Shown here one piece after another: positions 3,401 through 63,294 of a stretch of 64,000 bases of DNA; position 1 is the first letter of the stretch; every line of letters starts with the position of its first letter. The notes under the pieces were generated by a model. That model saw nothing but the letters and a program-made list of their open reading frames with translations, had not been told where the DNA came from and ran no database searches. The position numbers and the translations under genes were made by a program. The stretch comes from Bacteroidia bacterium (lineage in GTDB: Bacteria > Bacteroidota > Bacteroidia > SXHM01): positions 15,337 to 79,336 of the forward strand of contig JBFWYU010000004.1 in the NCBI GenBank assembly GCA_050186075.1. Direction: 5' to 3'.

Positions 3401-3702
3401 ACTTTTCAAAAGAAATAAATACTGCCGTTTTCCGCATTTTCCAGGAATCACTTACAAATATTGCCCGCCACTCACAGGCAACGCAGGTAAGCGTTAAACT
3501 TTTTACCAGTGGCAACAAACTAATTCTTCAGATCATTGACAACGGAATTGGCATCAGTGAAAACCGCAAATCCAACACGCTTTCCTTCGGTTTGCTCGGA
3601 ATGAATGAGCGTGCTGCCCACCTCAATGGAACTTTTTCAGTTGAAAAATATCCGCAAGGCGGAACTATTGTAATTCTTCAAATACCTTTACCCGCAGTAT
3701 GA
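499..3702 (+). CDS. Sensor histidine kinase: N-terminal TM, periplasmic CHASE-like domain, second TM, several PAS repeats, GAF domain, HisKA_3 H-box and HATPase_c (NarL-type kinase)
   Basis: 1067 aa ORF. CHASE-like stretch YPLKGNESVIGYDILKDPDRKREAVKAIEKKELYFSGPFELKQGGIGVVGRQPIF between two hydrophobic segments. H-box HIAREIHDELGQQLTGLKMDI and G-boxes near the C-terminus. ATGA overlap with the downstream regulator. Confidence 0.8.
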   Translation: MDKPQTSTASRKPVIIGLVVFFALLALTQFLSYQRYVINSTAEQREITNAANAAKERLQNSLQSSFNATKTLAFIVEKYGSPKDFNGVAKPLLESNQFVDAIQLVKAGVITNVYPLKGNESVIGYDILKDPDRKREAVKAIEKKELYFSGPFELKQGGIGVVGRQPIFIKNKFWGFAAVVIKLPTLLKAAGIDSTENKDYIFQLSKFNSVTQQEEFFLPHPEKFKNGHFVSVNVPDGDWKIYAQSKHNRVFPLSIMFVILGIALATLGGLFAWYFIRQPEELNRQVKEKTQQLRASENNYRTTLGRVSDAFVALDKNWRYTFLNDAALVNHPLGREETLGKIIWDVHPEMKGTIFEKKYYEAMETGKVTEAESYYPPLDIWFSVKVYPSADGLTIFYKDITESKKAEQQIVREKNLSDSVINSLPGLFYLYDETGKFLRWNKNFETISGYSGQEIEKMHPLDFFPEEEKQLLTEKIQSVFRGGNDDVEANFFTKDSRKIPYYFNGWVTEYEGKKCLLGVGIDITERKKTETELKLSIERFNISAKATNDIIWDWNLKDNGIWWNENFYSTFNYRRDDVPLVIDFWDERLHPEDKERVSTKIREAIEKRENFWADEYRFLDSANNVFYIYDRAYITYDKNNEPYRMVGAMINITDRKIAEEKIIKTSRLYYVISRINQMLVHALDEQTLFGEACRIAVEQGKFRMAWIGLVDEQTKQVVPVMHAGEEHGYLSHIKSISVENIPEGQGPTGTTLREGHYTCCNDIENDSHMLSWKDEALARGYRSSISLPIKKFGKLVGAFNLYADSVNFFDEGEIALLLETTNNISFALENFEKERMRKRANEEVVKSREELRELSAYLQGVREEERTHIAREIHDELGQQLTGLKMDIAWIKNKSEKEFQFPLLREKTNDMIDLVNNAITSVRKIAKQLRPGILDDLGLEAAIEWQANEFAERTGIKFTVESKLNGQDFSKEINTAVFRIFQESLTNIARHSQATQVSVKLFTSGNKLILQIIDNGIGISENRKSNTLSFGLLGMNERAAHLNGTFSVEKYPQGGTIVILQIPLPAV

Positions 3703-4325
3703 AATTCCTGATAGCCGATGACCATGCCATAGTGCGCAAAGGATTAGCGCAATTGCTGCGCGAAGAGTTTTCCGATGCCGAAATTCAGGAAGCATCTAAC
3801 AGCAACGAAATAATCGAAAAAGCTAAAAGTGCAATTTGGGATACTATTCTCATGGACATTTCAATGCCCGGCCGCAACGGCTTGGAAACACTCAAACAAA
3901 TCCGCGACATGGGTGTAAAAGCACCCGTGCTTGTCATAAGCATGCACCCCGAAGAACAATATGCTGTGCGCGTTATCAAAGCCGGAGCATCAGGTTTTTT
4001 AAATAAAGACAGCGCAACCGATGAACTGATTGCCGCAGTTCACAAAGTGCTGCTCGGCAAAAAATACATCAGCGCTACCTTGGCCGAAAAATTAGCCGAG
4101 GGCATTGACTCATCTTCACAAAAGCCGGCACACGAATTATTATCCGACCGCGAGCTGCAGGTTTTTCAGCTACTGGCTTCGGGCAAAACAGTAGGCGAAA
4201 TTGCCGATGAAATTTCACTCAGCGTAAATACCATCAGCACCTACCGTGCCCGCATTCTCGAAAAACTAAACCTTAGCAACAACGCTGAGCTCACCCGCTA
4301 CGCGCTGGATAACGGCCTGGCGTAG
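3699..4325 (+). CDS. Response regulator, NarL/FixJ family (REC + LuxR-type HTH)
   Basis: N-terminal receiver (LIADDH...DISMPG) and C-terminal LuxR HTH (LSDRELQVFQLLASGKTVGEIADEISLSVNTISTYRARILEKL). Translationally coupled to the kinase (ATGA). Confidence 0.85.
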   Translation: MKFLIADDHAIVRKGLAQLLREEFSDAEIQEASNSNEIIEKAKSAIWDTILMDISMPGRNGLETLKQIRDMGVKAPVLVISMHPEEQYAVRVIKAGASGFLNKDSATDELIAAVHKVLLGKKYISATLAEKLAEGIDSSSQKPAHELLSDRELQVFQLLASGKTVGEIADEISLSVNTISTYRARILEKLNLSNNAELTRYALDNGLA

Positions 4326-4328
4326 TTT

Positions 4329-4417
4329 CGTCATTGCGAGGCTTTTTCAGCCGAAGCAATCTCTTCAAATTGCGAGATTGCTTCACTGCTCCCGATAGCT
4401 ATCGGGACGCAATCACG
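4329..4417. repeat. REP-like nested palindromic intergenic element, copy 1 of 4
   Basis: cgtcattgcgag...gaagcaatctc...gagattgcttc...cccgatagctatcggg..cgcaatcacg. Outer IR cgtcattgcg/cgcaatcacg, inner IR gaagcaatctc/gagattgcttc. Starts 4 nt after the regulator stop codon. Confidence 0.7.
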
Positions 4418-4599
4418 TGTTCTACCCTTGTAGGACTATATTATCTACTCTTTTTCTACAAACAGTTAGCCCTCCTGGGCTTTAACAGCCTCGTAGAGGC
4501 GACCTGTTTGTAGTACAAACCACTACAAATCTTTCACACTCCTTACTATTTCGCAGCCCTTGCAGTTGCCGTTCCTTTGTGGTGTAAATTTTATATCAC

Positions 4600-9179: not shown

Positions 9180-10016
9180 GTCTTCGCAGTTCTGGTAGCG
9201 GTCGCCTTTGGCATTACGTCCATCGCACCGCCCGAAATAGTATATCAATGAAAAACTTACGTCTATAAAGCTGTCTTTCTGGTCAGGGTTGCCACGCGTT
9301 GCTCTGTTTGCTCTTGCTACACCGCCCGTTGGGTCTGAGTAGTAAACCGTTTCTTCTCCTCTGGGCGAAGTTGCCAAAATATCAGGCGCTAAATAACTTG
9401 TGCTTACATCATCCAAATAGTCAGTAAAAAGAACATGATAGACTGCTTCCAGCTTAACACCCCAGTTGCAATGAAAACGGTAGCGCACACCCAACCCAAC
9501 AGGAATAACCGGCTGCCATAAAGAGTAAGCCTTAGCATAACCGCCTCCCGCAGCATACTGACCCTCGGTGCCTAGCGGCTGCAAAGCCACACCATGCGAA
9601 AGCGGGCTGAAATGAAATACCCCACCACCAACTGTAATATAAGGAACCACACGCCCCGCCCTTTCACGCAATATGTTAAAGGTAATTCGCAACGAAATCT
9701 CATCTATTTTTGAGTAAAAGCCTAAATTGCGCAACTGCATATTCGCTTTTGAAGAATAGGTGTCATCAGCAGCAAGCGAGCCGTGCAGGTAATGCAACTG
9801 CACCCCCCAACGGGTATTAATATCGTAATGAACTCCGGCATTGATGGCGAGCTTAACCGTCTTAAAATCAGGCAGAGCTGTCTCTTTCAGGTCACCTAAA
9901 TAATACATACCTCCTACCCCAACATAAACCGAAAACCGCCCTTGTGGCTTAGCCGTTCCCGCCAGAGCAAGAAGAAAGATAACCGTAAATAGAATTCGTG
10001 AACCGCTGATTTTCAT
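9159..10016 (-). CDS. Outer-membrane beta-barrel protein (signal peptide, aromatic-rich alternating strands)
   Basis: Signal peptide MKISGSRILFTVIFLLALAGTAKPQ; alternating hydrophobic beta-strand pattern; C-terminal aromatic. 21-nt convergent overlap with the aminopeptidase gene. Confidence 0.5.
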   Translation of the reverse strand: MKISGSRILFTVIFLLALAGTAKPQGRFSVYVGVGGMYYLGDLKETALPDFKTVKLAINAGVHYDINTRWGVQLHYLHGSLAADDTYSSKANMQLRNLGFYSKIDEISLRITFNILRERAGRVVPYITVGGGVFHFSPLSHGVALQPLGTEGQYAAGGGYAKAYSLWQPVIPVGLGVRYRFHCNWGVKLEAVYHVLFTDYLDDVSTSYLAPDILATSPRGEETVYYSDPTGGVARANRATRGNPDQKDSFIDVSFSLIYYFGRCDGRNAKGDRYQNCEDLYKNLH

Positions 10017-20169: not shown

Positions 20170-21948
20170 ATGAAAGACTATACACGCCTGTTTGACTTGC
20201 TTCCCTATCAGCAGTCAAATCATCCGCAAGCGATTTGTCTTGCGGAAAAAGTAACAGAGAATGGACAAAAGTTCTACAAAGGTTACAGTACGCAGGAGTG
20301 TATCAACATCATTAATCAACTGAGCAAAGCGCTGCTGAAACTGGGTGTTAAGCCAAATGATAAAATAGGATTGATATCCAACAATCGTCCGCAATGGAAC
20401 TTTGTTGATTTGGCTGCACAGCAAATAGGAGCTATTAATGTACCTGTTTATCCTACTATTACAGAGAGCGAATACAAGTTTATTTTCAACGATGCTGAGA
20501 TTGTTTACTGCTTTGTTTCAGATGCTGATTTGTATGCAAAAATTCAAAGCATAAAATCCGATATTCCTTCACTGAAAGATGTTTTTACTTTTAATGAAGT
20601 TGCCGGGGCAAAGAACTGGAAAACATTGCTGGAAGAAGTAAGTGCGGACGACCTGAAGCAAATTGAAACGCTGAAAGCAGCTATAAAACCAAATGATCTT
20701 GCTACCATTATTTATACTTCGGGTACAACAGGAAATCCCAAAGGGGTAATGCTTTCGCATAACAACATCATCAGCAATATCAAATCAACACTTTCTATTC
20801 AGCAGATGATGGTGGCGGGTAAACGAAGCCTGAGTTTTCTTCCGCTCTGCCATAGTTTTGAGCGCATGGTGGTTTATACATATTTCGCTGTAGGCATGTC
20901 GGTTTACTATGCCGAAACACTGGAAACTATTGGCGAAAATCTGAAGGAAGTAAAGCCGCATTTCTTTACCACTGTTCCCCGTTTACTTGAAAAAGTGTAT
21001 GAAAAAATAATGGAGAAGGGTAATGCGTTAGAAGGTTTCCGCAAGAAGTTATTTTTCTGGAGCATTGATTTAGGCTTACGGTTTGAACTGAATAAATTTC
21101 AGGGAATATCTTACACGCTTCAGCTTGCCATTGCACGCAAATTAGTTTTCTCGAAATGGAAAGAGGCACTGGGCGGAGAAGTGGAAGCTCTTGTAAGCGG
21201 TGCTGCTGCATTGAATGCAAAACTGGGAACATTGTTTACCGGAGCAGGAATTCCAATTATTGAAGGTTACGGATTAACGGAAACTTCGCCTGTGCTTACC
21301 TCCAACCGCTTGGAAGAAAAGGACCGAAAACTGGGAACGATTGGTATTCCTATTCCCGGTGTGGAAATAAAAATTGCTGAAGACGGTGAGATACTTGCCA
21401 AAGGTCCCAACATCATGTTGGGATATTACAAACGCCCTGATTTAACGGCCGAAGTAATAGATAAAGATGGCTGGTTTCACACCGGTGATATAGGAGTGTA
21501 TGAGGGAAAGTTTTTAAAAATAACCGACCGCAAAAAAGAACTTTTTAAAACATCGGGCGGAAAATATGTTGCACCGCAACCGATTGAAAACAAAATGAAA
21601 GAATCGCCACTGATTGAACAGGTAATGGTAGTCGGCAGTGAACGCAAATTTGTTTCAGGACTAATTGTGCCCTCGTTTGTGAATCTGGAAGGATGGTGCA
21701 AAAACAACAATGTTATTTTTCCGGGTAATGCGGGAGTAATACGAATTCCGGAAGTAATAGAAGCTATTCAGAAAGAAGTGGAACGCATTAATCAGGATAT
21801 TAACCATGTGGAGCAGATAAAGAAATTCACTTTACTGCCTGCCGAATGGGGTGTTGCAACCGGAGAACTCACTCCAACCATGAAACTGAAACGAAAAGTA
21901 ATTCTGGAAAAATTCAGTACGGAGATTGAAGCGATGTATAAAGAATAA
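20170..21948 (+). CDS. AMP-dependent synthetase / long-chain acyl-CoA ligase
   Basis: AMP-binding motif IIYTSGTTGNPKGVMLSH, GYGLTETSP, TGDIG...DRKKELFKTSGGKYVAP. Confidence 0.85.
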   Translation: MKDYTRLFDLLPYQQSNHPQAICLAEKVTENGQKFYKGYSTQECINIINQLSKALLKLGVKPNDKIGLISNNRPQWNFVDLAAQQIGAINVPVYPTITESEYKFIFNDAEIVYCFVSDADLYAKIQSIKSDIPSLKDVFTFNEVAGAKNWKTLLEEVSADDLKQIETLKAAIKPNDLATIIYTSGTTGNPKGVMLSHNNIISNIKSTLSIQQMMVAGKRSLSFLPLCHSFERMVVYTYFAVGMSVYYAETLETIGENLKEVKPHFFTTVPRLLEKVYEKIMEKGNALEGFRKKLFFWSIDLGLRFELNKFQGISYTLQLAIARKLVFSKWKEALGGEVEALVSGAAALNAKLGTLFTGAGIPIIEGYGLTETSPVLTSNRLEEKDRKLGTIGIPIPGVEIKIAEDGEILAKGPNIMLGYYKRPDLTAEVIDKDGWFHTGDIGVYEGKFLKITDRKKELFKTSGGKYVAPQPIENKMKESPLIEQVMVVGSERKFVSGLIVPSFVNLEGWCKNNNVIFPGNAGVIRIPEVIEAIQKEVERINQDINHVEQIKKFTLLPAEWGVATGELTPTMKLKRKVILEKFSTEIEAMYKE

Positions 21949-21949
21949 T

Positions 21950-22640
21950 CTACCGGATTTTATCACAAAAGAACAACACAAAGTCCGAAGGACTTAAATA
22001 TGAATAACCCCGAATGCAATTCGGGAAAAAAAGCGGAGTTAACAACAACTCTAAAGGAGTTGAATAAAACAGTATGAGTACTTATACCCAAATAGTATAT
22101 CAAATAGTTTTCAGCACTAAGAACCGTGAACATACTCTTAAACCTGAAAGCAATAAAGATTTATACAAATACATTTGGGGTATATTAAAAAACAAAAAAT
22201 GTCATTTGTATCAGATAGGTGGTGTTGCTGACCATATTCATATTATAACTCATTTACATCCCTCCATAGCGCTTTCATCCTTGATTAAAGACATAAAACT
22301 GGCAAGTTCAGAGCACATAAAAAGTCATAATTTATTTCAAAACTTTTCAGGCTGGCAGGAAGGGTACGGAGCATTTACATATTCTATTAAAGATAAAGAC
22401 CGATTAATAGAATATGTAAAAAATCAGGAAGAACATCATCGAATAAAAACATTCAGAGAGGAGTATGTTGAATTGCTTAATGAGCATGGGATTGCATTCG
22501 ATGAGAAATTTCTTTTGTAATAACAATTCAACCACGTTGTGGTTGTTTTATATCTGCGTCATATAACCCCTGATTTCATCAGGGGTTATTCAAATTAAAT
22601 CCCTTCGGGATTTTTATAGAAGCTAGGCAGGATATTCTCT
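21950..22640 (+). mobile_element. Putative IS200/IS605-family element (tnpA only) with hairpin-rich ends
   Basis: Y1 transposase gene flanked upstream by hairpins (agtccgaaggact; cccgaatgcaattcggg) and downstream by three hairpins (caaccacgttgtggttg; ataacccctgatttcatcaggggttat; aaatcccttcgggattt). Exact ends not determinable from one copy. Confidence 0.4.
22074..22520 (+). CDS. tnpA: IS200/IS605-family Y1 (HUH) transposase TnpA, possibly a REP-associated tyrosine transposase (RAYT)
   Basis: 148 aa. HUH motif ADHIHIITHL; C-terminal catalytic Tyr context EYVKNQEEHH; size typical of TnpA_IS200. Confidence 0.7.
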   Translation: MSTYTQIVYQIVFSTKNREHTLKPESNKDLYKYIWGILKNKKCHLYQIGGVADHIHIITHLHPSIALSSLIKDIKLASSEHIKSHNLFQNFSGWQEGYGAFTYSIKDKDRLIEYVKNQEEHHRIKTFREEYVELLNEHGIAFDEKFLL

Positions 22641-22708
22641 AAAAGAGCACTAAAATTAATTCACATCAGAATCCCCTTATTCGTAATTTCGCACAGAATT
22701 TCCTCTCT

Positions 22709-23272
22709 GTGCTTATTACTCATCCTAAACTAACCAAACTTCTTCAACAGGCATACTCTGCTGAAAAAGCTGCTGCTTTTGCTTATCAGGGACATGCCGG
22801 TTCATTAAAAAGTAAAGAAGAAAAAGTTCCGGTTCGTCAGATTGAACTGGATGAATGGAAACACCGCGAAGAAGTATTGAAAATTATGAAACAGTACCAT
22901 ATTCCTGTTTCAAAGAAATATGAAGTTCAGTTTCATGTTATCGGCAAAACCATTTCGTTCAGTTGCTATGTTATCGGTTGGTTTATGCCTTATTATTTTG
23001 CAGGAAGACTGGAAAGCGGAAACGTGTGTGAGTATTTTGTGATGATCCATTATTTCCATGAATTAGGTATTTACGAGCATGACCAGATTTTATACGAAAT
23101 GGCTATCAAGGAAAAAGAACACGAGGTGTTTTTTCTTGAAAAAGTAAAAGGAAGTAAGTTGTTGCCTTTCTTTGAAAAGCTTTTTAACTGGGGAAAGAAA
23201 AGCAGTTTTAATGATGTTGATCTGGAAAACAAATTTCCGGTAGAACAATCGGATAATTATTGCAAGAGGTAA
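22709..23272 (+). CDS. Hypothetical ferritin-like (diiron-carboxylate) protein
   Basis: Two E-x-x-H motifs (ELDEWKHREE; EKEHEVFF) about 90 residues apart, with an intervening hydrophobic segment; no closer family assignment possible. Confidence 0.35.
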   Translation: MLITHPKLTKLLQQAYSAEKAAAFAYQGHAGSLKSKEEKVPVRQIELDEWKHREEVLKIMKQYHIPVSKKYEVQFHVIGKTISFSCYVIGWFMPYYFAGRLESGNVCEYFVMIHYFHELGIYEHDQILYEMAIKEKEHEVFFLEKVKGSKLLPFFEKLFNWGKKSSFNDVDLENKFPVEQSDNYCKR

Positions 23273-28689: not shown

Positions 28690-28753
28690 GCCGCTTAACC
28701 TATCTGCCTTTTAACATAATGACTAAAAAGAACATTGCGCTCAGCGGGGCAGA
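28690..28753. repeat. Intergenic repeat family 2, copy A
   Basis: gccgcttaacc...ttaacataatgactaaaaagaacattgcgctcagcggggcag; shares a 60-nt core with copy B. Confidence 0.6.
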
Positions 28754-29763: not shown

Positions 29764-29821
29764 ATCCGCCTCAGGCGGACCGCTTAGCGCAAACGCATTG
29801 AACATTCAGCTGAGCGGGGCA
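29764..29821. repeat. Intergenic repeat family 2, copy C (hybrid with the GC hairpin of family 1)
   Basis: tccgcctcaggcggac-cgcttagcgcaaacgcattgaacattcagctgagcggggcag. Confidence 0.55.
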
Positions 29822-29825
29822 GTTA

Positions 29826-30935
29826 CTATTTGCTTTTCAAAATCCAGTTCAGTCGTAAATTAAATGTCTTGAAATTTTTCCAGTCAGGCGAATTGTTGGT
29901 GTATTTGGGTTGAGAAAGTGAGGCAAAGTCAAAATTAATGTTCATTGGTATTTTAGTCAACTTGTAAAGAGGAACCTGAAGTCCGAGCCCGTATGTGAAA
30001 GGGGTAATTTTGTCGTAGTTGATGGATGGGTAACCAAAGTCATATTGTTTTTCAAAATAGTAACCAGCGCGAAGTGATAATATCTCAAAAAGCATTAGTT
30101 CACCACCTACCCGAATAGCGGTCTCATATTCTGAGTTTAAAAGGTTTTGGTATTCACCTTGAACTAAAAAAACAAGAGTTGTTAAAGTGTCTATAAGCAC
30201 GTGCTTGGCAAGGTTAAACTGATAATTTGCGCCAAAGCGAGCAACAACGGGCAAATCGTTTTTAATCGTTGTTCCGTTATATTCAAGTGTGATTTTGGAA
30301 TTATTAAGATTTGAAATGCTTGCCCCGACATTTAGTGAATGTCCGGTGCTTTGCTTTTGTAAGAATTTGATTTTTTTAATTATCCCAAAGTCAACGTAAA
30401 GTGAGTTGGCGGCTTTGTCAAGTCCCGGCTGCCAAACTAAATTGGTTAAGTTAAGTCCGATAAGAAGATTTTTTATTGGTTCAGAAGATACAGTCAACGT
30501 ATTTCTTTCGGAATAAGGTTTTTTGTTTACGTTTTGGATTTCTGTCTTACCAAAATCAAAGCGAAATTTAGAAACAGCAATCTGTATAGATGGTCCAGGT
30601 CCTGTTGGTAAAGGTGTCCACCCGCTCTTTTTAAACATATTGCGTAACGATAAGTTTAATCCTGCACTGAAATACCAATAATAACCTTCTGTCAAATAGA
30701 ATGGCGGTGGTGTATAAGAGCCATTTGTTTCTACACCTTTAATTGTTGCAGCACCCGCTGGATTAAAATAAATAGTAGTCAAGTCACCATCAATAGAAGT
30801 ATAACTTCTACCCATTGCCTCTGCACGTGCATTTTGTTGTCTGCCAAAAAAATTCTCTTTTAGGAAATAGTATTTATACTGTCCGAAAGAAGTAAACGGA
30901 AGTAGTAAAAGAAAAATGATTATCAGTCGTGTCAT
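29826..30935 (-). CDS. Outer-membrane beta-barrel protein, PorV/PorQ-like (T9SS-associated family), tentative
   Basis: Signal peptide. N-terminal ARAEAMGRSYTSIDGDLTTIYFNPAGAA motif reminiscent of the PorV/PorQ family; beta-strand periodicity; C-terminal aromatic. Confidence 0.4.
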   Translation of the reverse strand: MTRLIIIFLLLLPFTSFGQYKYYFLKENFFGRQQNARAEAMGRSYTSIDGDLTTIYFNPAGAATIKGVETNGSYTPPPFYLTEGYYWYFSAGLNLSLRNMFKKSGWTPLPTGPGPSIQIAVSKFRFDFGKTEIQNVNKKPYSERNTLTVSSEPIKNLLIGLNLTNLVWQPGLDKAANSLYVDFGIIKKIKFLQKQSTGHSLNVGASISNLNNSKITLEYNGTTIKNDLPVVARFGANYQFNLAKHVLIDTLTTLVFLVQGEYQNLLNSEYETAIRVGGELMLFEILSLRAGYYFEKQYDFGYPSINYDKITPFTYGLGLQVPLYKLTKIPMNINFDFASLSQPKYTNNSPDWKNFKTFNLRLNWILKSK

Positions 30936-31169
30936 TGGTCGTTTGCTTTAATTGCCCATAACTTATCTATACCCGAAACCTTATTTCGCATATCCACACC
31001 CCCTTGGTTAGACTTGCGAAAATTTGGTGTTATTGCATAGCATTCTGTCAACAACATTATTAAAATTATTTTATAAATCAAATACCAACAGCAATTTGTT
31101 GCTGAGGAAATACGGCCTTATACCGTAGTTGTTAAGGATGCACAGAAAAAGTAAAAGTATGTACACAGA

Positions 31170-31421
31170 ATTATAATGTTTGCATATATACTTATAAACT
31201 ATGCCCGGAGATTTATAAAGTTTGCAGAGATACTTTTTAACTATGTATAGTCGTTTATAAAGTTTGCCTGCATACTTTTAAACTATGCATAAAGAATATA
31301 TAAGTATGCACGCTTAGTTGTAAACTATGCATACAGAATTATAAAGTTTGTGTGCAGAATTATAAACTATGTATGCAGAATTATAACGTTTGCACAAATA
31401 CTTATACTTTTTGCAAGCATA
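31170..31421. repeat. Array of 12 strictly phased 21-bp AT-rich direct repeats (iteron-like), alternating two subtypes
   Basis: Units start at 31170, 31191, 31212 ... 31401 (exact 21-nt spacing). Type A ttataaagtttgcNNNNNatac, type B ttataaactatgNNNNNagaa (42-bp super-unit x6). Confidence 0.8.
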
Positions 31422-31694
31422 CTTAACTAAAATGGCGGAAAAAGAAAAAGCTTTCTTCACAAACCTGTAAGCGTTGCGAAGAAAGCTTTAAACTCCGGCT
31501 GCCGGACTGCCGGCTAAAAATTATTAATTGATGATGAGTGAATAAGGTTGACTCCAATTGCCTGTTCCGTCTTTAGGGGTGGTTACCCTATGGCGAAAAT
31601 ACTGACGCGTTACCGGCTGCAAGCCTGCAACAGTTGTAGTTGCCTTTATAGTTGTTGGCAAAGGTTGCCAGTTAATACCATCACCTGATGTAGC

Positions 31695-32144
31695 CTACTC
31701 ATGAAACGAACGCATGGGAGCGCCCGGAGCAAAAAGGTCAACTATACCTGAAGTAATTGTGTTTTTTGCATGAAACACTACTTTCTGCCTTATTGCAGTC
31801 ATTTTTATGCGCATGCCACCTTTTTCGGCTATGTCAGCAGCCTGTGAAGGGTTAGCATTAACAGCAGTTTGCACTACCACTTTCAGCATATTAATATCCG
31901 AAACTACTAATCCCAGCGGTATATTTCTTGCAGCAGCAGTGCCTGTTCCGGCTATAACGGCTGCCTCGGCATTTTCCAGTGCCTGAATATTGGCATCTAT
32001 TGCTGTAAGCACTGTAGCCGGAATTACAAAAAGTGCCGGATACTGTTGAATAGCTGCAAGCAATGCATCAGCATCCAGAATTAGTTGTGGAACTTTGGTA
32101 GCAATCTTGTAAACGACTACCGGATGTTTTGGAAAGTTTGTCAT
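31695..32144 (-). CDS. Hypothetical protein; ORF ends at a TAG that is followed in-frame by 57 further sense codons (31522..31694)
   Basis: 149 aa ORF. In-frame downstream extension ATSGDGINWQPLPTTIKATTTVAGLQPVTRQYFRHRVTTPKDGTGNWSQPYSLIIN. Confidence 0.4.
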   Translation of the reverse strand: MTNFPKHPVVVYKIATKVPQLILDADALLAAIQQYPALFVIPATVLTAIDANIQALENAEAAVIAGTGTAAARNIPLGLVVSDINMLKVVVQTAVNANPSQAADIAEKGGMRIKMTAIRQKVVFHAKNTITSGIVDLFAPGAPMRSFHE

Positions 32145-33591: not shown

Positions 33592-33817
33592 AATAAATGA
33601 GTTTTAAATGGTTAATGGTTTCGGGTACAAATGTATTTTGCAAAAAGGGAGGCAGTAATGAGGTTGGTCAGTAAAAAATATGATTGTAATCAATAAAAAG
33701 ACCTTTTTATCTTTTTATATCAGAATGACCTATATCATCTGCGAACATTACATACATCATATTGGTTATAGAAAAGGAATAAGAACTTTGCAAACGAAAT
33801 TTTAAAATTCAAACATC

Positions 33818-34304: not shown

Positions 34305-34745
34305 ATGATGTTCTCTAAAAGTTGTGAGTATGCTATTAAAGCAGTGCTGCACTTATGTATTCACACCAAAGACGGGAACAAACTCGGCATACACGAAATT
34401 GCGGAAGCCATAGAATCGCCCGAACCATTTACGGCAAAAATTCTGCAAACGCTGGTAAAGCATAAAATCATCAATTCTTCAAAAGGTCCCGGTGGCGGTT
34501 TTTTTATTGATAAAAAAGCAAAGCCCATTGTAGTAATGGATATTATTGAAATCATTGACGGCAAATCAGCTTTTGAACGTTGCGGCCTTGGATTAAAACA
34601 CTGCGATGCCAGTCACCCCTGCCCTATTCATAATGAGTTTGTCAATTACTCACAGAAACTGAAAAACCTGTTGGAGAAAAAAACCATTCAGGAGTTTTCG
34701 GCAAGCATTGCGGCAGGAAAATCGTTTATCTCTAATTTAAGCTAA
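34305..34745 (+). CDS. Rrf2-family transcriptional regulator (IscR/NsrR-like, three-Cys cluster)
   Basis: N-terminal wHTH (CEYAIKAVLHLC...LGIHEIAEAIESPEPFTAKILQTLVKHKII); C-terminal Cys residues (C..C.....C) as in Fe-S Rrf2 regulators. Sits directly upstream of the nos locus. Confidence 0.8.
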   Translation: MMFSKSCEYAIKAVLHLCIHTKDGNKLGIHEIAEAIESPEPFTAKILQTLVKHKIINSSKGPGGGFFIDKKAKPIVVMDIIEIIDGKSAFERCGLGLKHCDASHPCPIHNEFVNYSQKLKNLLEKKTIQEFSASIAAGKSFISNLS

Positions 34746-34747
34746 AC

Positions 34748-34839
34748 CGTCATTGCGATCTGCCAGAGGCGGAGAAGCAATCTCCCGTTTAAATACTTTA
34801 CCTCATTGTAAGATTGCTCAGCTATCACCCGCAATCACG
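34748..34839. repeat. REP-like nested palindromic intergenic element, copy 2 of 4
   Basis: cgtcattgcgatctgccagaggcggagaagcaatctc...taagattgctcagctatcacccgcaatcacg; begins 3 nt after the Rrf2 stop. Confidence 0.65.
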
Positions 34840-34965
34840 TTATTATAACTCAATAAAAGATAAAAAGGTCTTTTTATTGACATTAATCATAATTTTGACT
34901 GACCGAACTCATTATGTATAACCCAACACGGGGCTAATTTTGTCCCGTAATCAAAAACAATCCTT

Positions 34966-53909: not shown

Positions 53910-54959
53910 TTACTCCTCGCTCCAGCAAACTAAAATCTGCCGCTTCCCTTCATAAGGAAGCCTTCCGTGCGAAGTTCCAAGGTTATCAATCGCCAGCAAA
54001 TCATTTTTCTTCCAGGGAAAAATCACCATGTTTTTCCAAATAGTTTCTTCAATGTTTCGGATATATTTTTCAGGGATTTCTGCTCCATCGGCAAACAACA
54101 TATTCATGCTTTGCTCTTCGGGCTGGGTTCCGCGTTTTTTCAATTTGGTTGCCACATTTAAAAACAATTTCATCATCCATGTTTTCAGGCGTTTCTGCCG
54201 ATGATGAATGAATTCGTATTCTATTGGCGCAGCATCAATATTAAAAACCTGTGTGTGATTAAACCATACTTTTTCTTTAGTAACCGGATGCTCCACAACA
54301 GCATCATTAATATGTGTAAGCCTTAGATCACCATTTTCTTTCCATGCAAAATCAACTTCGTATTTACGGAATTGTTTTTCCACTTCTTCTTTATCAGTGG
54401 TATGAAAAATGTCCGGCCAGCTTTTCAGCTCCCAGAGATTGAGCTTGCTGCGCTTGCCCGGAGCACTGTAGTTGCGAACCAATTTCAGTTTGCGCTTTTC
54501 AAACTCACGTTTCACTTCTGCATCCAGCTCAGTGTATACCTTTCTGAAATTGCAAATGGGTGTTTCACCGCCATATTCGGGTTCTACATTGCAGTAAAAA
54601 AACAACTTGATTGGCTTGTTTTTCATGTAACTCATTTCGCAGTGCTGCGGAATAGGATAAAAACCCGGAAGCTCGCTGGCAGAAAAAACATAATCGGTTC
54701 CCGCAACTTTGTCGCGCGGTGAAGTTCCCAGATAGTCGTTCTTTAAATTAGGGTCAACAAGCGCAGAAATTTCTTCAAACACTTTAGGAGAACTGATGTC
54801 GAAACCACGGAATAGAATTGCTCCGTGTTTATACATTTTATTCAGCAAGTCTTTATGATTTTTTCGGATATATTCTTTCAGTCCTTCCGCTGATTTATCG
54901 CCATCCGGTTCAATTACCAAAGGAAGCTGTTGCTGTTCGTTAATAAAGTATTGTTTCAT
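53910..54959 (-). CDS. TauD/TfdA-like Fe(II)/2-oxoglutarate dioxygenase, tentative
   Basis: ~350 aa; clavaminate-synthase-like fold pattern. Annotated ORF starts at GTG 54980; ATG at 54959 (MKQYF...) preferred. Confidence 0.45.
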   Translation of the reverse strand: MKQYFINEQQQLPLVIEPDGDKSAEGLKEYIRKNHKDLLNKMYKHGAILFRGFDISSPKVFEEISALVDPNLKNDYLGTSPRDKVAGTDYVFSASELPGFYPIPQHCEMSYMKNKPIKLFFYCNVEPEYGGETPICNFRKVYTELDAEVKREFEKRKLKLVRNYSAPGKRSKLNLWELKSWPDIFHTTDKEEVEKQFRKYEVDFAWKENGDLRLTHINDAVVEHPVTKEKVWFNHTQVFNIDAAPIEYEFIHHRQKRLKTWMMKLFLNVATKLKKRGTQPEEQSMNMLFADGAEIPEKYIRNIEETIWKNMVIFPWKKNDLLAIDNLGTSHGRLPYEGKRQILVCWSEE

Positions 54960-54999: not shown

Positions 55000-55080
55000 C
55001 GTGATTGCGAGTCCGCCTCAGGCGGGCGAAGCAATCTCATAAATAATAAAGAGATTGCTTCGCTATCGCTCGCAATGACG
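55000..55080. repeat. REP-like nested palindromic intergenic element, copy 3 of 4
   Basis: cgtgattgcgagtccgcctcaggcgggcgaagcaatctcataaataataaagagattgcttcgctatcgctcgcaatgacg; preceded by a (cactaag)3 short tandem repeat. Confidence 0.7.
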
Positions 55081-61195: not shown

Positions 61196-61645
61196 TTATT
61201 TTAGATGTATTGTTTGTTCCTCTCCAGAATTATAAAAAGTAATACTATTTATTTCTAAGATTTTTTGAACAGATAATTTTCTATTTACACCAAACATTAA
61301 AATAGCATCCTTATTAATTTCCTTCCAATCTTGTTCATCATTAATTGTTGGGAAACTAATAATTGATTTATAAAAGCCAATACCATATACAGGAACATTA
61401 GTATTTACAGTATCAACATATTGCTCACATATCTTTATAAAATCAGTGTTATTAAAACATTCTTCATTGTAACCTTCAACATATAAATAATGAACAAAAT
61501 ACGTTTCACTGCCATGACTCATAGATTCATAATAGTGTGGAGTTATTTTTAAATGCTGATTTGCACAATCAATATTGTTTATTGAGATTGAGCAAGAAAA
61601 GAATATCGAGATACTAAAAAACAGAAAGAATACCCTGAACTTCAT
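61196..61645 (-). CDS. Hypothetical secreted protein (AT-rich gene)
   Basis: Start taken at MKFRVFF (61645) giving a signal peptide; no domain recognised. Confidence 0.35.
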   Translation of the reverse strand: MKFRVFFLFFSISIFFSCSISINNIDCANQHLKITPHYYESMSHGSETYFVHYLYVEGYNEECFNNTDFIKICEQYVDTVNTNVPVYGIGFYKSIISFPTINDEQDWKEINKDAILMFGVNRKLSVQKILEINSITFYNSGEEQTIHLK

Positions 61646-61649
61646 TGTC

Positions 61650-62621
61650 TTAAAAATTATACAACACCCCTTGCTCTGCAAAAATAAAATTCAGTTTGTA
61701 CTTATTCTGTTCGCTTAACTGTTTCTTAATCATTTCTTCATTGTTGCCTGCAGGCTTCATGTGGGTAATGATCACATTCAAGTCTTTCAACGCATCTTTT
61801 CCGGCCAGTTTTGCAAGTGCTTCCATTTCTTTCATCAGCCATTTGGGAGTGAGGTGTCCATAGAGTTTATTATCGGCTTGCTCATCGGGATAAGAAACTT
61901 CGAGGAAGATTGCTTTCAGTTTTTTCTCTTTCATTAAAGGTGCGATCTCCTTCCAGATGCTTTCCATGCGATTGGATTTTTCCAGTTCATCTGCACCGGT
62001 GTCACCAAAATACAAAATGTAGTTATCATTGTTACGCAGCAGGAATGCGGAACTCTGATAAGGCGTTGAATGGCTCAACGGAAATGTTTTTGCTGAAAGT
62101 GCAGTGTTCTCAATTTTGGTTTCGGCACCGGGAGCTAAAAACTTATACTGATATTTTTTAAGCGCAGGACTATCACCATCGCTGCCGAAGTTGGGCCAGC
62201 TTTTCCAATTGAAATAATGCTTCTGCAAATAGTCAAGCGTGAAGGGAAGTCCGTAAATGCTTTTGGTAGTATCATCAACCGAGTTGAGAACAAGTCCTGA
62301 AACATGGTCAAGGTGAGCGTGCGAAATGAGATAGGCTTTGATGTTGTTTTTTATAACACCTTGCACATCGCCTTTGAATAGTTTATTAGCAATTGCTTTC
62401 TCCACTCCGCTGTAAATTGTTCCGGCATCTAAACAGATGTAAGTATCGGAACCTTCGGGAGCGACAAGGTAGGCAGAGAGGTTGCTTTCGTCAAGCCCGC
62501 CTTTTACACCAAGGGGAATTACTTTGAAAGCGTTCTGGGAAATGCAGAATGCAGAATTAAGAATTAAGAATACGAGTAGAATGTTTTTTACCACTAAGGC
62601 ACTAAGGACACTAAGTTTCAC
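61650..62621 (-). CDS. Secreted MBL-fold class II 3',5'-cyclic-nucleotide phosphodiesterase-like protein
   Basis: Signal peptide; HAHLDHVSGL (class II PDE signature H-x-H-L-D-H). Confidence 0.6.
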   Translation of the reverse strand: MKLSVLSALVVKNILLVFLILNSAFCISQNAFKVIPLGVKGGLDESNLSAYLVAPEGSDTYICLDAGTIYSGVEKAIANKLFKGDVQGVIKNNIKAYLISHAHLDHVSGLVLNSVDDTTKSIYGLPFTLDYLQKHYFNWKSWPNFGSDGDSPALKKYQYKFLAPGAETKIENTALSAKTFPLSHSTPYQSSAFLLRNNDNYILYFGDTGADELEKSNRMESIWKEIAPLMKEKKLKAIFLEVSYPDEQADNKLYGHLTPKWLMKEMEALAKLAGKDALKDLNVIITHMKPAGNNEEMIKKQLSEQNKYKLNFIFAEQGVLYNF

Positions 62622-63219: not shown

Positions 63220-63294
63220 CGTCATTGCGAGTCCGCCTGAGGCGGACGAAGCAATCTCACAATTAAAGATTGCTTCACTGCGTTCGCAATGACG
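63220..63294. repeat. REP-like nested palindromic element, copy 4 of 4 (overlaps the 3' end of a CDS)
   Basis: cgtcattgcgagtccgcctgaggcggacgaagcaatctcacaattaaagattgcttcactgcgttcgcaatgacg; encodes the last 7 codons and stop of the M20-like gene. Confidence 0.7.

Follow-up and report, generated by a model that had tools for sequence, protein, structure and literature searches.

The CGTC-tagged repetitive extragenic palindromic (REP) sequences form a superfamily that includes the dRS3 repeats of Neisseria (CGTC-1) and the RPE-4 and RPE-6 elements of Rickettsia (Di Nocera, De Gregorio & Rocco 2013, BMC Genomics 14:522). As set out in the main text of that paper, a unit consists of a CGTC tag (or TGTC or CCTC instead), a stem of 8-9 bp starting with AT, a loop of 4-5 nt and a CCA tail; the units mostly occur as dimers, are found in five phyla and, unlike the GTAG-tagged REPs, have no transposase gene associated with them. 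The present study deals with four palindromic elements in a stretch of 64,000 nucleotides (the window) from a Bacteroidia bacterium (contig JBFWYU010000004.1, positions 15,337 to 79,336 of the forward strand); the repeat unit behind the four copies is called type A in this report. We consider it likely that a small non-autonomous repeat, a new sequence type within the CGTC-tagged superfamily, is present here in four copies and spreads selfishly by means of a trans-acting enzyme. The copies share one nested structure, the same unit is distributed over many genomes, and related species differ at orthologous sites by the presence or absence of an element, by its replacement with another repeat type and by a swapped hairpin.

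The CGTC-tagged class as such is already known, but the type A sequence matches none of its four published families as these are given in the text and the supplementary peptides of the 2013 paper, on which the separation of type A from CGTC-1 to CGTC-4 is based. The supplement of BMC Genomics 14:522 lists the peptides VIPAKAGI for CGTC-1, RHSELVSGS (equivalent to CGTCATTCTGAACTTGTTTCAGGATC) for CGTC-2, VIPGLDPGI for CGTC-3 and VIPVLDTGI for CGTC-4; none of the peptides encoded by type A in six frames is found there, and none corresponds to any of the four families. Full-text literature searches for the motif sequences returned unrelated primer matches only. We treat type A as a further type of the superfamily because it agrees with the published repeats in its tag, in a stem foot starting with AT and in its arrangement as dimers, and has no transposase gene linked to it either; its tail is CCA-like in part of the units.

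Structure and distribution of the type A repeat

All four elements of the preliminary description of this DNA, with their outer and inner inverted repeats, were found where it had placed them:

4329..4417, no strand: copy 1, a type A dimer; outer arms 4329-4340 and 4406-4417, inner arms 4353-4363 and 4374-4384, side hairpins GGCTTTTTCAGCC (left, 4340-4352) and TCCCGATAGCTATCGGGA (right, 4390-4407)
34748..34839, no strand: copy 2, a decayed type A dimer; outer arms 34748-34759 and 34828-34839, left side hairpin at about 34759-34772, left inner arm 34774-34784, right inner arm degenerate and near 34810-34820
55000..55080, no strand: copy 3, a type A dimer; outer arms 55000-55011 and 55069-55080, inner arms 55028-55038 and 55051-55061 with the loop 55039-55050, side hairpin TCCGCCTCAGGCGGG (55012-55026)
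63220..63294, no strand: copy 4, a type A dimer; outer arms 63220-63231 and 63283-63294, inner arms 63248-63258 and 63266-63276, side hairpin CCGCCTGAGGCGG (63233-63245)

These four loci are the only ones in the window where the outer 12-mer CGTSATTGCGAG (allowing for 1-2 mismatches at most) and the inner 11-mer GAAGCAATCTC form inverted pairs, and the inner motif has 7 matches compared to 1.27 expected, a number reached in 0 of 100 shuffles. The elements are 75-92 nt long, each has a 12-bp terminal inverted repeat, and their G+C content is about 50% in comparison to 39.8% for the window. As single-stranded RNA or DNA all four are predicted to adopt a nested multi-branch fold in which one or two GC side hairpins stand between an outer stem of 12 bp and an inner stem of 11-13 bp. 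Folding thus confirms the nested hairpins proposed earlier: relative to shuffled sequences the z-scores of copies 1 to 4 are -5.9, -2.4, -8.5 and -8.2 for RNA (plus strand) and -6.1, -2.0, -8.5 and -8.2 for DNA, so that copies 1, 3 and 4 fold far better than shuffles and the degraded copy 2 barely does (z about -2). Copies 3 and 4 had been called nearly identical, which is too strong at 83% identity overall and 88% across the left 51 nt; they are nonetheless the closest pair, with 70-74% identity for the remaining pairs.

In an alignment of both strands the type A unit reads [C/T]GTC-ATTGCGAG-(variable apical hairpin)-GAAGCAAT-C(C/T)N, and that of the window copies CGTC-ATTGCGAG-(variable segment)-GAAGCAAT-CTC. 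Each window element consists of two such units, inverted and joined tail to tail with the CGTC ends pointing outward; the tag is CGTC in five of the eight arms and CGTG in the other three. A lone unit folds as a foot of 5-6 bp (ATTGC/GCAAT or, with 6 bp, GATTGC/GCAATC), a purine-rich internal loop and the apical hairpin. In the fold of a dimer the pairing from arm to arm (12 + 11 bp) dominates and the variable segments, which usually differ between the two arms, project as side hairpins; a single strand of DNA or RNA is accordingly predicted to form a long hairpin with a three- or four-way junction.

The statistics of the family refer to 355 units drawn from other genomes and from viral contigs. 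GTC is preceded by C in 185 and by T in 155 of them, an alternation of CGTC and TGTC that the 2013 paper also notes, and the tail following GCAAT is CCA-like (C+CA) in 39% and CTC-like (C+TC), as in the window copies, in 32%. The variable segment comprises 6-35 nt and is either the hexanucleotide CGNAGC (N, any base) or longer. Together with the flanking G the 6-nt spacer reads GCGNAGC, which matches the very stable GNA mini-hairpin. Among the longest variable segments 67% form a hairpin of at least 4 bp, as against 17% after shuffling, and from this comparison over the 355 units the apical hairpin is conserved in shape only, whereas the stems are conserved in sequence. Dimers with outward tags account for 119 of 171 units at genome loci (70%), and in viral contigs solo units predominate. 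Open reading frame (ORF) calls in the viral contigs are crude and some of the co-oriented cases are tandem arrays; with this limit, solo units are co-oriented in 18 of 20 viral contigs that carry two or more of them, in either sense relative to the genes, which fits strand-specific insertion. At four viral loci (L141, L153, L174 and L188) solo type A units on one strand occupy nearly every intergenic gap, in many cases with a ribosome-binding site and start codon following at a distance of 10-25 nt.

The distribution of the unit was determined by a scan of one genome per species for GTCATTGCGAG followed after 5-35 nt by GAAGCAATC, and viral contigs were scanned likewise. Among the matches listed, the exact type A core is present in at least 12 phyla; the carriers comprise Alpha-, Gamma- and Deltaproteobacteria, Chloroflexi, Cyanobacteria, Melainabacteria, Patescibacteria and Zixibacteria as well as Planctomycetes, Latescibacteria, Ignavibacteria, Bacteroidota, Firmicutes and Helicobacter, and viral contigs are also among them, a set that includes prophage-derived sequence and may include misclassified host DNA. 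Carriers known by name are Bradyrhizobium, Sphingomonas cynarae, Sporomusa malonica and Pedobacter (P. agri), among others. Collections of isolated phages and of plasmids yielded just 3 and 9 records with the core, all of them unannotated there. The exact 33-nt arm of copies 3 and 4, including the side hairpin, recurs in 66 metagenome stretches with varied flanks and partner arms, and at least 10 of these belong to one population. Within the window the density is 4 copies per 64 kb. A short-read contig identical to the window (L262) begins within copy 3 and stops at the final base of copy 4; such breaks are to be expected at a multi-copy repeat. The preliminary description had named confinement to the four copies, with none in relatives, as the finding that would speak against a dispersed repeat; the unit is instead present in many other genomes.

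Turnover at orthologous sites and a possible mechanism of spread

Contigs of relatives were obtained via homologues of AspS, NosZ and the sensor kinase; they represent other species of the same genus with 83-87% nucleotide identity. Comparison of the insertion sites across these relatives revealed gain, loss or replacement of elements at orthologous positions, in line with the mobile repeat proposed earlier. Copy 1 is absent from the orthologous spacer in two relatives (L259 and L260, with kinase identities of 91% and 70%) and was therefore probably gained in the lineage of the window. The spacer 23272/23276 between two nearly abutting convergent genes is empty in the window and in L133, whereas in L134-L136 it holds an 89-nt insert with a complete type A dimer. 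At the site of copy 2 the same three relatives (L134-L136) have a CGTC-2-type dimer instead, and the loop of its left unit holds TCCCGATAGCTAACGGGA, the module of the right side hairpin of copy 1. The site of copy 4 is likewise occupied by CGTC-2-type dimers in L121, L127, L128 and L133. On the left, the flanks of both sites align up to CGTCA, at copy 4 exactly so, and the right boundary at copy 4 is ragged. The repeat at both sites is of the CGTC-2 type (CGTCATKCTGAACTTGTTTCAGSAT), and the CGTC-2-type repeats of the relatives have the AT-starting stem of 8-9 bp and the 4-5-nt loop of the superfamily.

Two further observations concern these CGTC-2-type repeats. The dimer at the site of copy 4 is a heterodimer of ATGCTGAA/TTCAGCAT and ACCCTGAA/TTCAGGGT, the two units of which stand in reversed order and with a different spacer length in L121 (16340-16447) and L127 (17810-17878); the reversed order implies an inversion or an independent re-insertion. 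Elsewhere in the window, an AT-rich segment (61196-61650) with a lipoprotein-like ORF of 149 aa on the minus strand replaces most of a CGTC-2-type dimer that the sister species have between a pectate-lyase-like and a phosphodiesterase gene, and a CGTC-2-type remnant, ACCCTGAAC, persists at about 61634-61642.

Every sister species has copy 3 in the same place, and its inner stem and loop do not differ from those in the window. As side hairpin, however, the relatives carry GGGTTTTTCACCC and the window TCCGCCTCAGGCGGG, a module that is also present in copy 4. If the swapped module is disregarded, identity between the species amounts to 93-96% for copy 3 and to 98-100% for the 56-nt spacer between copy 3 and the aspS start, compared to 82-90% for the adjacent coding DNA. 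Copy 3 is old and, being conserved above the surrounding coding DNA, appears to be under constraint. It may have been co-opted into the control region of aspS or of the tauD-like gene, and of all observations its conservation speaks most clearly for a role of a single copy in the host.

Hairpin modules are shared beyond copies 3 and 4: TCCGCCTSAGGCGGA, TCCCGATAGCTAWCGGGA and GGSTTTTTCASCC recur in the loop position of type A units, of CGTC-2-type units and of unrelated stems, and such small GC hairpins may be exchangeable or may nest independently. Individual cases are TCCGCCTCAGGCGGA within the unrelated stem AAGCGG...CCGCTT at 29764-29778 of the window, and TCCCGATAGCTAWCGGGA, which L133 carries within a stem TGCC...GGCA (20826-20843) and L134 within a CGTC-2-type unit, as part of its loop (9268-9285).

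A mobilising gene was sought in the neighbourhood of the units. All-versus-all clustering of ORFs at 120 genome and 120 viral loci revealed no enrichment of any protein family near type A; the clusters consist of common housekeeping or phage structural families only. This matches the absence of linked transposase genes that the text of BMC Genomics 14:522 reports for CGTC-tagged repeats. ORFs bracketed by two type A units are ordinary genes with one exception, a Patescibacteria contig from a metagenome-assembled genome (L048), in which a gene for an IS256/Mutator-like transposase (556-1840) lies exactly at the junction of two complete dimers (...CTCGCAATGG | IS | CCATTGCGAG..., IS being the insertion sequence). 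This insertion sequence has its own, unrelated 24-bp terminal repeats and looks like an insertion into a repeat cluster; the arrangement suggests that insertion sequences target these palindromes.

How could such elements be propagated? We assume that they spread and turn over as selfish DNA and that a trans-acting, sequence-specific enzyme, encoded elsewhere than next to the elements, most likely reads the tag and the foot of the hairpin on single-stranded DNA, by analogy with TnpA of IS200/IS605 and with the REP-associated tyrosine transposases (RAYTs); the mechanism would thus be of the HUH-like, single-strand type. Copies would persist in intergenic spacers at gene boundaries, where they are presumably tolerated. 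Where one repeat type takes the place of another, the left tag would serve as the anchor, and the conserved blocks of 8-11 nt that flank the apical hairpin would let copies swap this hairpin by short-patch conversion or template switching. Individual copies can in addition gain host effects, as in the C-terminus rewritten by copy 4 (see below) and in the conserved copy 3.

A bolder version of this model is offered tentatively, as one that we consider rather unlikely. Type A would then be a fifth, so far uncatalogued CGTC type. One enzyme, which would differ from classical RAYTs, travel horizontally and possibly be carried by viruses, would keep its 20-nt core identical in more than a dozen phyla and in viral contigs. 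The CGTC tag would be the point of action of this enzyme, so that newly arriving elements would insert at resident CGTC repeats of other types and take their place in a kind of cassette exchange at the left tag, and copies would trade their apical hairpins.

Several points weigh against selfish spread. Just four copies were counted in the census of the 64-kb window, no mobilising enzyme was found near type A units at the loci searched, and no transposition event was observed. At 23272/23276, the sole site that can be compared in the filled and the empty state, there is neither a target-site duplication nor a conserved target, and the 89-nt insert carries extra bases outside the CGTC...GACG core. 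The conservation of copy 3 points to selection on that copy rather than to purely selfish persistence, and the occurrence of two repeat types in one spacer could reflect selection for any stable hairpin there instead of a targeted mode of insertion. Mobility is deduced from the comparison between species alone, with the direction of change assigned mostly by parsimony.

Gene context and alternative explanations

The main rival assumes that the elements are cis-acting hairpins of the host that are kept by selection and act on RNA or on transcription, be it as 3'-end stabilisers, for intercistronic processing or insulation or as part of a leader, and that mobility is incidental. It draws on the gene context, on which the preliminary description had stated that each copy starts within a few nucleotides of a stop codon. 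This is correct for copies 1 and 2, which lie directly past stop codons in the sense of transcription: copy 1 begins 3 nt past the TAG (4323-4325) of a gene for a LuxR/GerE-type response regulator (3699-4325), and copy 2 begins 2 nt past the TAA (34743-34745) of an Rrf2 regulator gene, upstream of a cytochrome c / nosZ cluster. It does not apply to copies 3 and 4. Copy 3 is located between two divergent start codons, the ATG of a TauD-like gene (54957-54959, minus strand) and that of aspS (55137, plus strand), the product of which is about 80% identical to AspS of Lentimicrobium saccharophilum. Judged by its proteins, the source is an uncultured member of the Bacteroidota related to Lentimicrobium, and the window matches the metagenome-assembled genome GCA_050249275.1. 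Copy 4 stands between two co-directional genes on the minus strand, an M20 peptidase gene and a GldN-like gene of type IX secretion, and begins 20 nt from the start of the latter (63199). The stop codon of the peptidase gene (63275-63277) lies inside the right arm of copy 4, which provides the last six codons and the stop of this ORF. Since the peptidase ends with ...NSNE* in a sister species and with ...NSNEPSLRTQ* in the window genome, copy 4 replaced the native stop and added six codons.

Besides these positions, the stronger conservation of copy 3 and its spacer to aspS than of neighbouring coding DNA, the presence of some strong hairpin repeat at two sites in every species examined and the very stable folds as RNA are in agreement with a host function. 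However, no element has a terminator-like T-run, the conserved parts are symmetric so that both strands fold alike, and copy 3 lies between two gene starts. In about 300 loci there is no fixed association with a gene family, and units in viral contigs point in either direction with respect to the genes. Across phyla the stems keep their sequence and do not covary, as expected for recognition of DNA by a protein, and no Rfam family matches. Host selection is therefore a plausible reading of copy 3; it leaves the family as a whole unexplained, and for the family we regard it as unlikely.

The covariance models of Rfam yielded no family for the elements and, for the whole window, a single tRNA at the gathering score; a permissive search around copy 3 gave noise only, with E values up to 10. 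A terminator scan reported none of the four elements as an intrinsic terminator. The terminator reading was rejected, as no copy scores as an intrinsic terminator and copy 3 lies between two gene starts. Together with the presence in many genomes and the turnover, this sustains the earlier classification as a dispersed repeat similar to REPs, bacterial interspersed mosaic elements (BIMEs) or miniature inverted-repeat transposable elements (MITEs) rather than as gene-specific terminators.

Other palindromes and repeats were noticed near copies 1 and 2. The palindrome TTGTAGTACAAACCACTACAA at about 4507-4528, upstream of a gene for a CheY-like response regulator, is kept in the relatives with 91% and 70% kinase identity, the rest of that spacer not being conserved; it is probably the operator of the adjacent LuxR/GerE-type regulator, and partial extra copies of it adjoin copy 1. 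Copy 2 is enclosed, together with an ORF of 155 aa and the Rrf2 gene, by an inverted duplication of 60 nt (33656-33715 and 34855-34914, 87% identical). Relatives have kept the core of this duplication, AAGATAAAAAGGTCTTTTTATTGAYATTAATCAT, as well, in a position upstream of the cytochrome c / nosZ cluster, and the duplication is likely a shared promoter or operator of a clade II nos cluster and a divergent fasciclin gene.

Alternatively, the elements could be sites of recognition or recombination and owe their conservation to this. They would then serve either a conserved protein that binds DNA, in the way in which nucleoid proteins, gyrase or IHF occupy the BIMEs of E. coli, or the integration of phages or insertion sequences, as at dRS3 of Neisseria. 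dRS3, a CGTC-1 repeat, is a target of phage integration, and several elements of the IS110 family target REPs. The conservation of the stem sequence across phyla, a symmetric architecture that would suit a dimeric binder and the insertion sequence exactly at the junction of two dimers in L048 would be compatible with this idea. We hold it to be very unlikely: no integrated elements are present at the four copies of the window, we know of no candidate binding protein, and binding alone would account neither for the colonisation of new sites nor for the exchange of one repeat type for another.

A comparably poor case can be made for classical MITEs, i.e. deletion derivatives of an insertion sequence with a DDE transposase that have 12-bp terminal inverted repeats (CGTCATTGCGAG) and are moved by cut-and-paste. 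The 12-bp terminal inverted repeat and the length of 75-92 nt are MITE-like, and the IS256/Mutator-like gene of L048 lies exactly between two type A dimers. This gene belongs, however, to an insertion sequence with unrelated 24-bp terminal repeats of its own that appears to have inserted into a repeat cluster. A target-site duplication was looked for around the four copies and none was seen, nor is there one at the filled-versus-empty site; solo units with a single end are common, and no transposase family is enriched near the units. An origin as classical MITEs is thus highly improbable.

The preliminary description had also hinted at a link between the repeats and a Y1 transposase gene in the window (22074-22520). 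The protein of 148 aa with the motifs DHIH, WQ and YVKNQEEHH scores 66 bits with the IS200 model (cut-off 55) and 29 bits with the REP-associated model (cut-off 80), and by length and motifs fits subclass 1.2 of TnpA-Y1. This subclass is described as low in copy number, without REPs and restricted to Cyanobacteria and Bacteroidetes (Quentin et al. 2018). The gene is bracketed by a 46-nt imperfect inverted repeat (21980-22025 and 22568-22613) of small hairpins that have no relation to type A and no further copy in the window; according to the literature, subclass 1.2 generally lacks terminal structures of this kind. The entire unit of about 715 nt (21949-22664), directly past the stop of a gene for an AMP-binding enzyme, behaves as an indel that is missing in L133 and present in L134 and L136, and looks like an ordinary small IS200-like element. 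Its right flank contains one CGTC-tagged hairpin (22557-22593), the only simple CGTC-plus-hairpin repeat detected in the window, and such repeats are no more frequent there than those with control tetranucleotides. That this enzyme mobilises type A as a RAYT-like partner is the least credible of the explanations: it belongs to the same superfamily as the RAYTs and has the CGTC-tagged hairpin at its flank, but its score, its unrelated flanks (type A does not form inverted pairs around the gene), its nature as an indel unit, the narrow range of its subclass in comparison to that of type A and the absence of Y1 homologues from the ORFs of 120 type A loci of other genomes all argue against it.

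Two repeats of the window stand apart from the elements discussed so far. In a tandem array at 31154-31406, in the intergenic region 30935-31695, a unit of 21 nt (consensus AAAGTATGCATACAGAATTAT) is repeated about 11.5 times, with a double period of 42 nt; the array looks like one of iterons or of multiple binding sites. A 23-nt repeat, AAAGAACATTGCGCTCAGCGGGG, has three copies (at 28727, 29069 and 29797), two of them identical, near the ends of small ORFs on the minus strand.

Relation to described repeat systems

CGTC-tagged repeats, including dRS3 of Neisseria and the Rickettsia palindromic elements, are widespread. We know of no enzyme that mobilises them, unlike the situation for GTAG REPs, and type A makes the search for one more tractable. 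The window and its relatives provide a natural before-and-after series that comprises a gained copy, an empty and a filled site, two type replacements and one exchanged hairpin module, and the core shared across phyla is a precise handle of 20 nt for phylogenetic profiling towards the enzyme. The repeats also matter for annotation and biology, as they have rewritten a C-terminus, include a conserved copy upstream of aspS and break short-read assemblies.

Like the small dispersed repeats of cyanobacteria, type A contains hairpin modules that recur in the loops of different host palindromes. The cyanobacterial repeats reportedly nest inside other palindromes; they differ from type A in sequence and in the taxa concerned. 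With MITEs such as the Correia elements and ERIC, type A shares the length of 75-92 nt, terminal inverted repeats, an intergenic location and the ability to alter gene ends, but in contrast to them it has neither a target-site duplication nor a parent insertion sequence, and solo half units look functional.

The resemblance to GTAG REPs and to the REPINs of E. coli, Pseudomonas and Stenotrophomonas is closer in form: both are short tagged palindromes, with inverted doublets that fold into long hairpins, intergenic, subject to turnover between related genomes and presumably mobilised in trans as single-stranded DNA. The tag of type A is, however, CGTC, CGTG or TGTC and not GTAG, and, unlike in REP-RAYT systems, no single-copy transposase gene flanked by type A (a REPtron) was found at the loci searched.

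The features in common with the CGTC-tagged superfamily are a C/TGTC tag that abuts the palindrome, a stem foot that starts with AT (ATTGC), dimers with outward tags that are often heterodimers (four of the four window copies are dimers) and a spread over distant phyla with no transposase gene linked. In distinction from the definition of the superfamily, the stem of the type A unit itself comprises 5-6 bp and is followed by a purine internal loop instead of a loop of 4-5 nt; the apical hairpin is variable and exchangeable, and the dimer folds as a branched junction. Type A also extends to more phyla than the five reported for CGTC repeats and is present in viral contigs.

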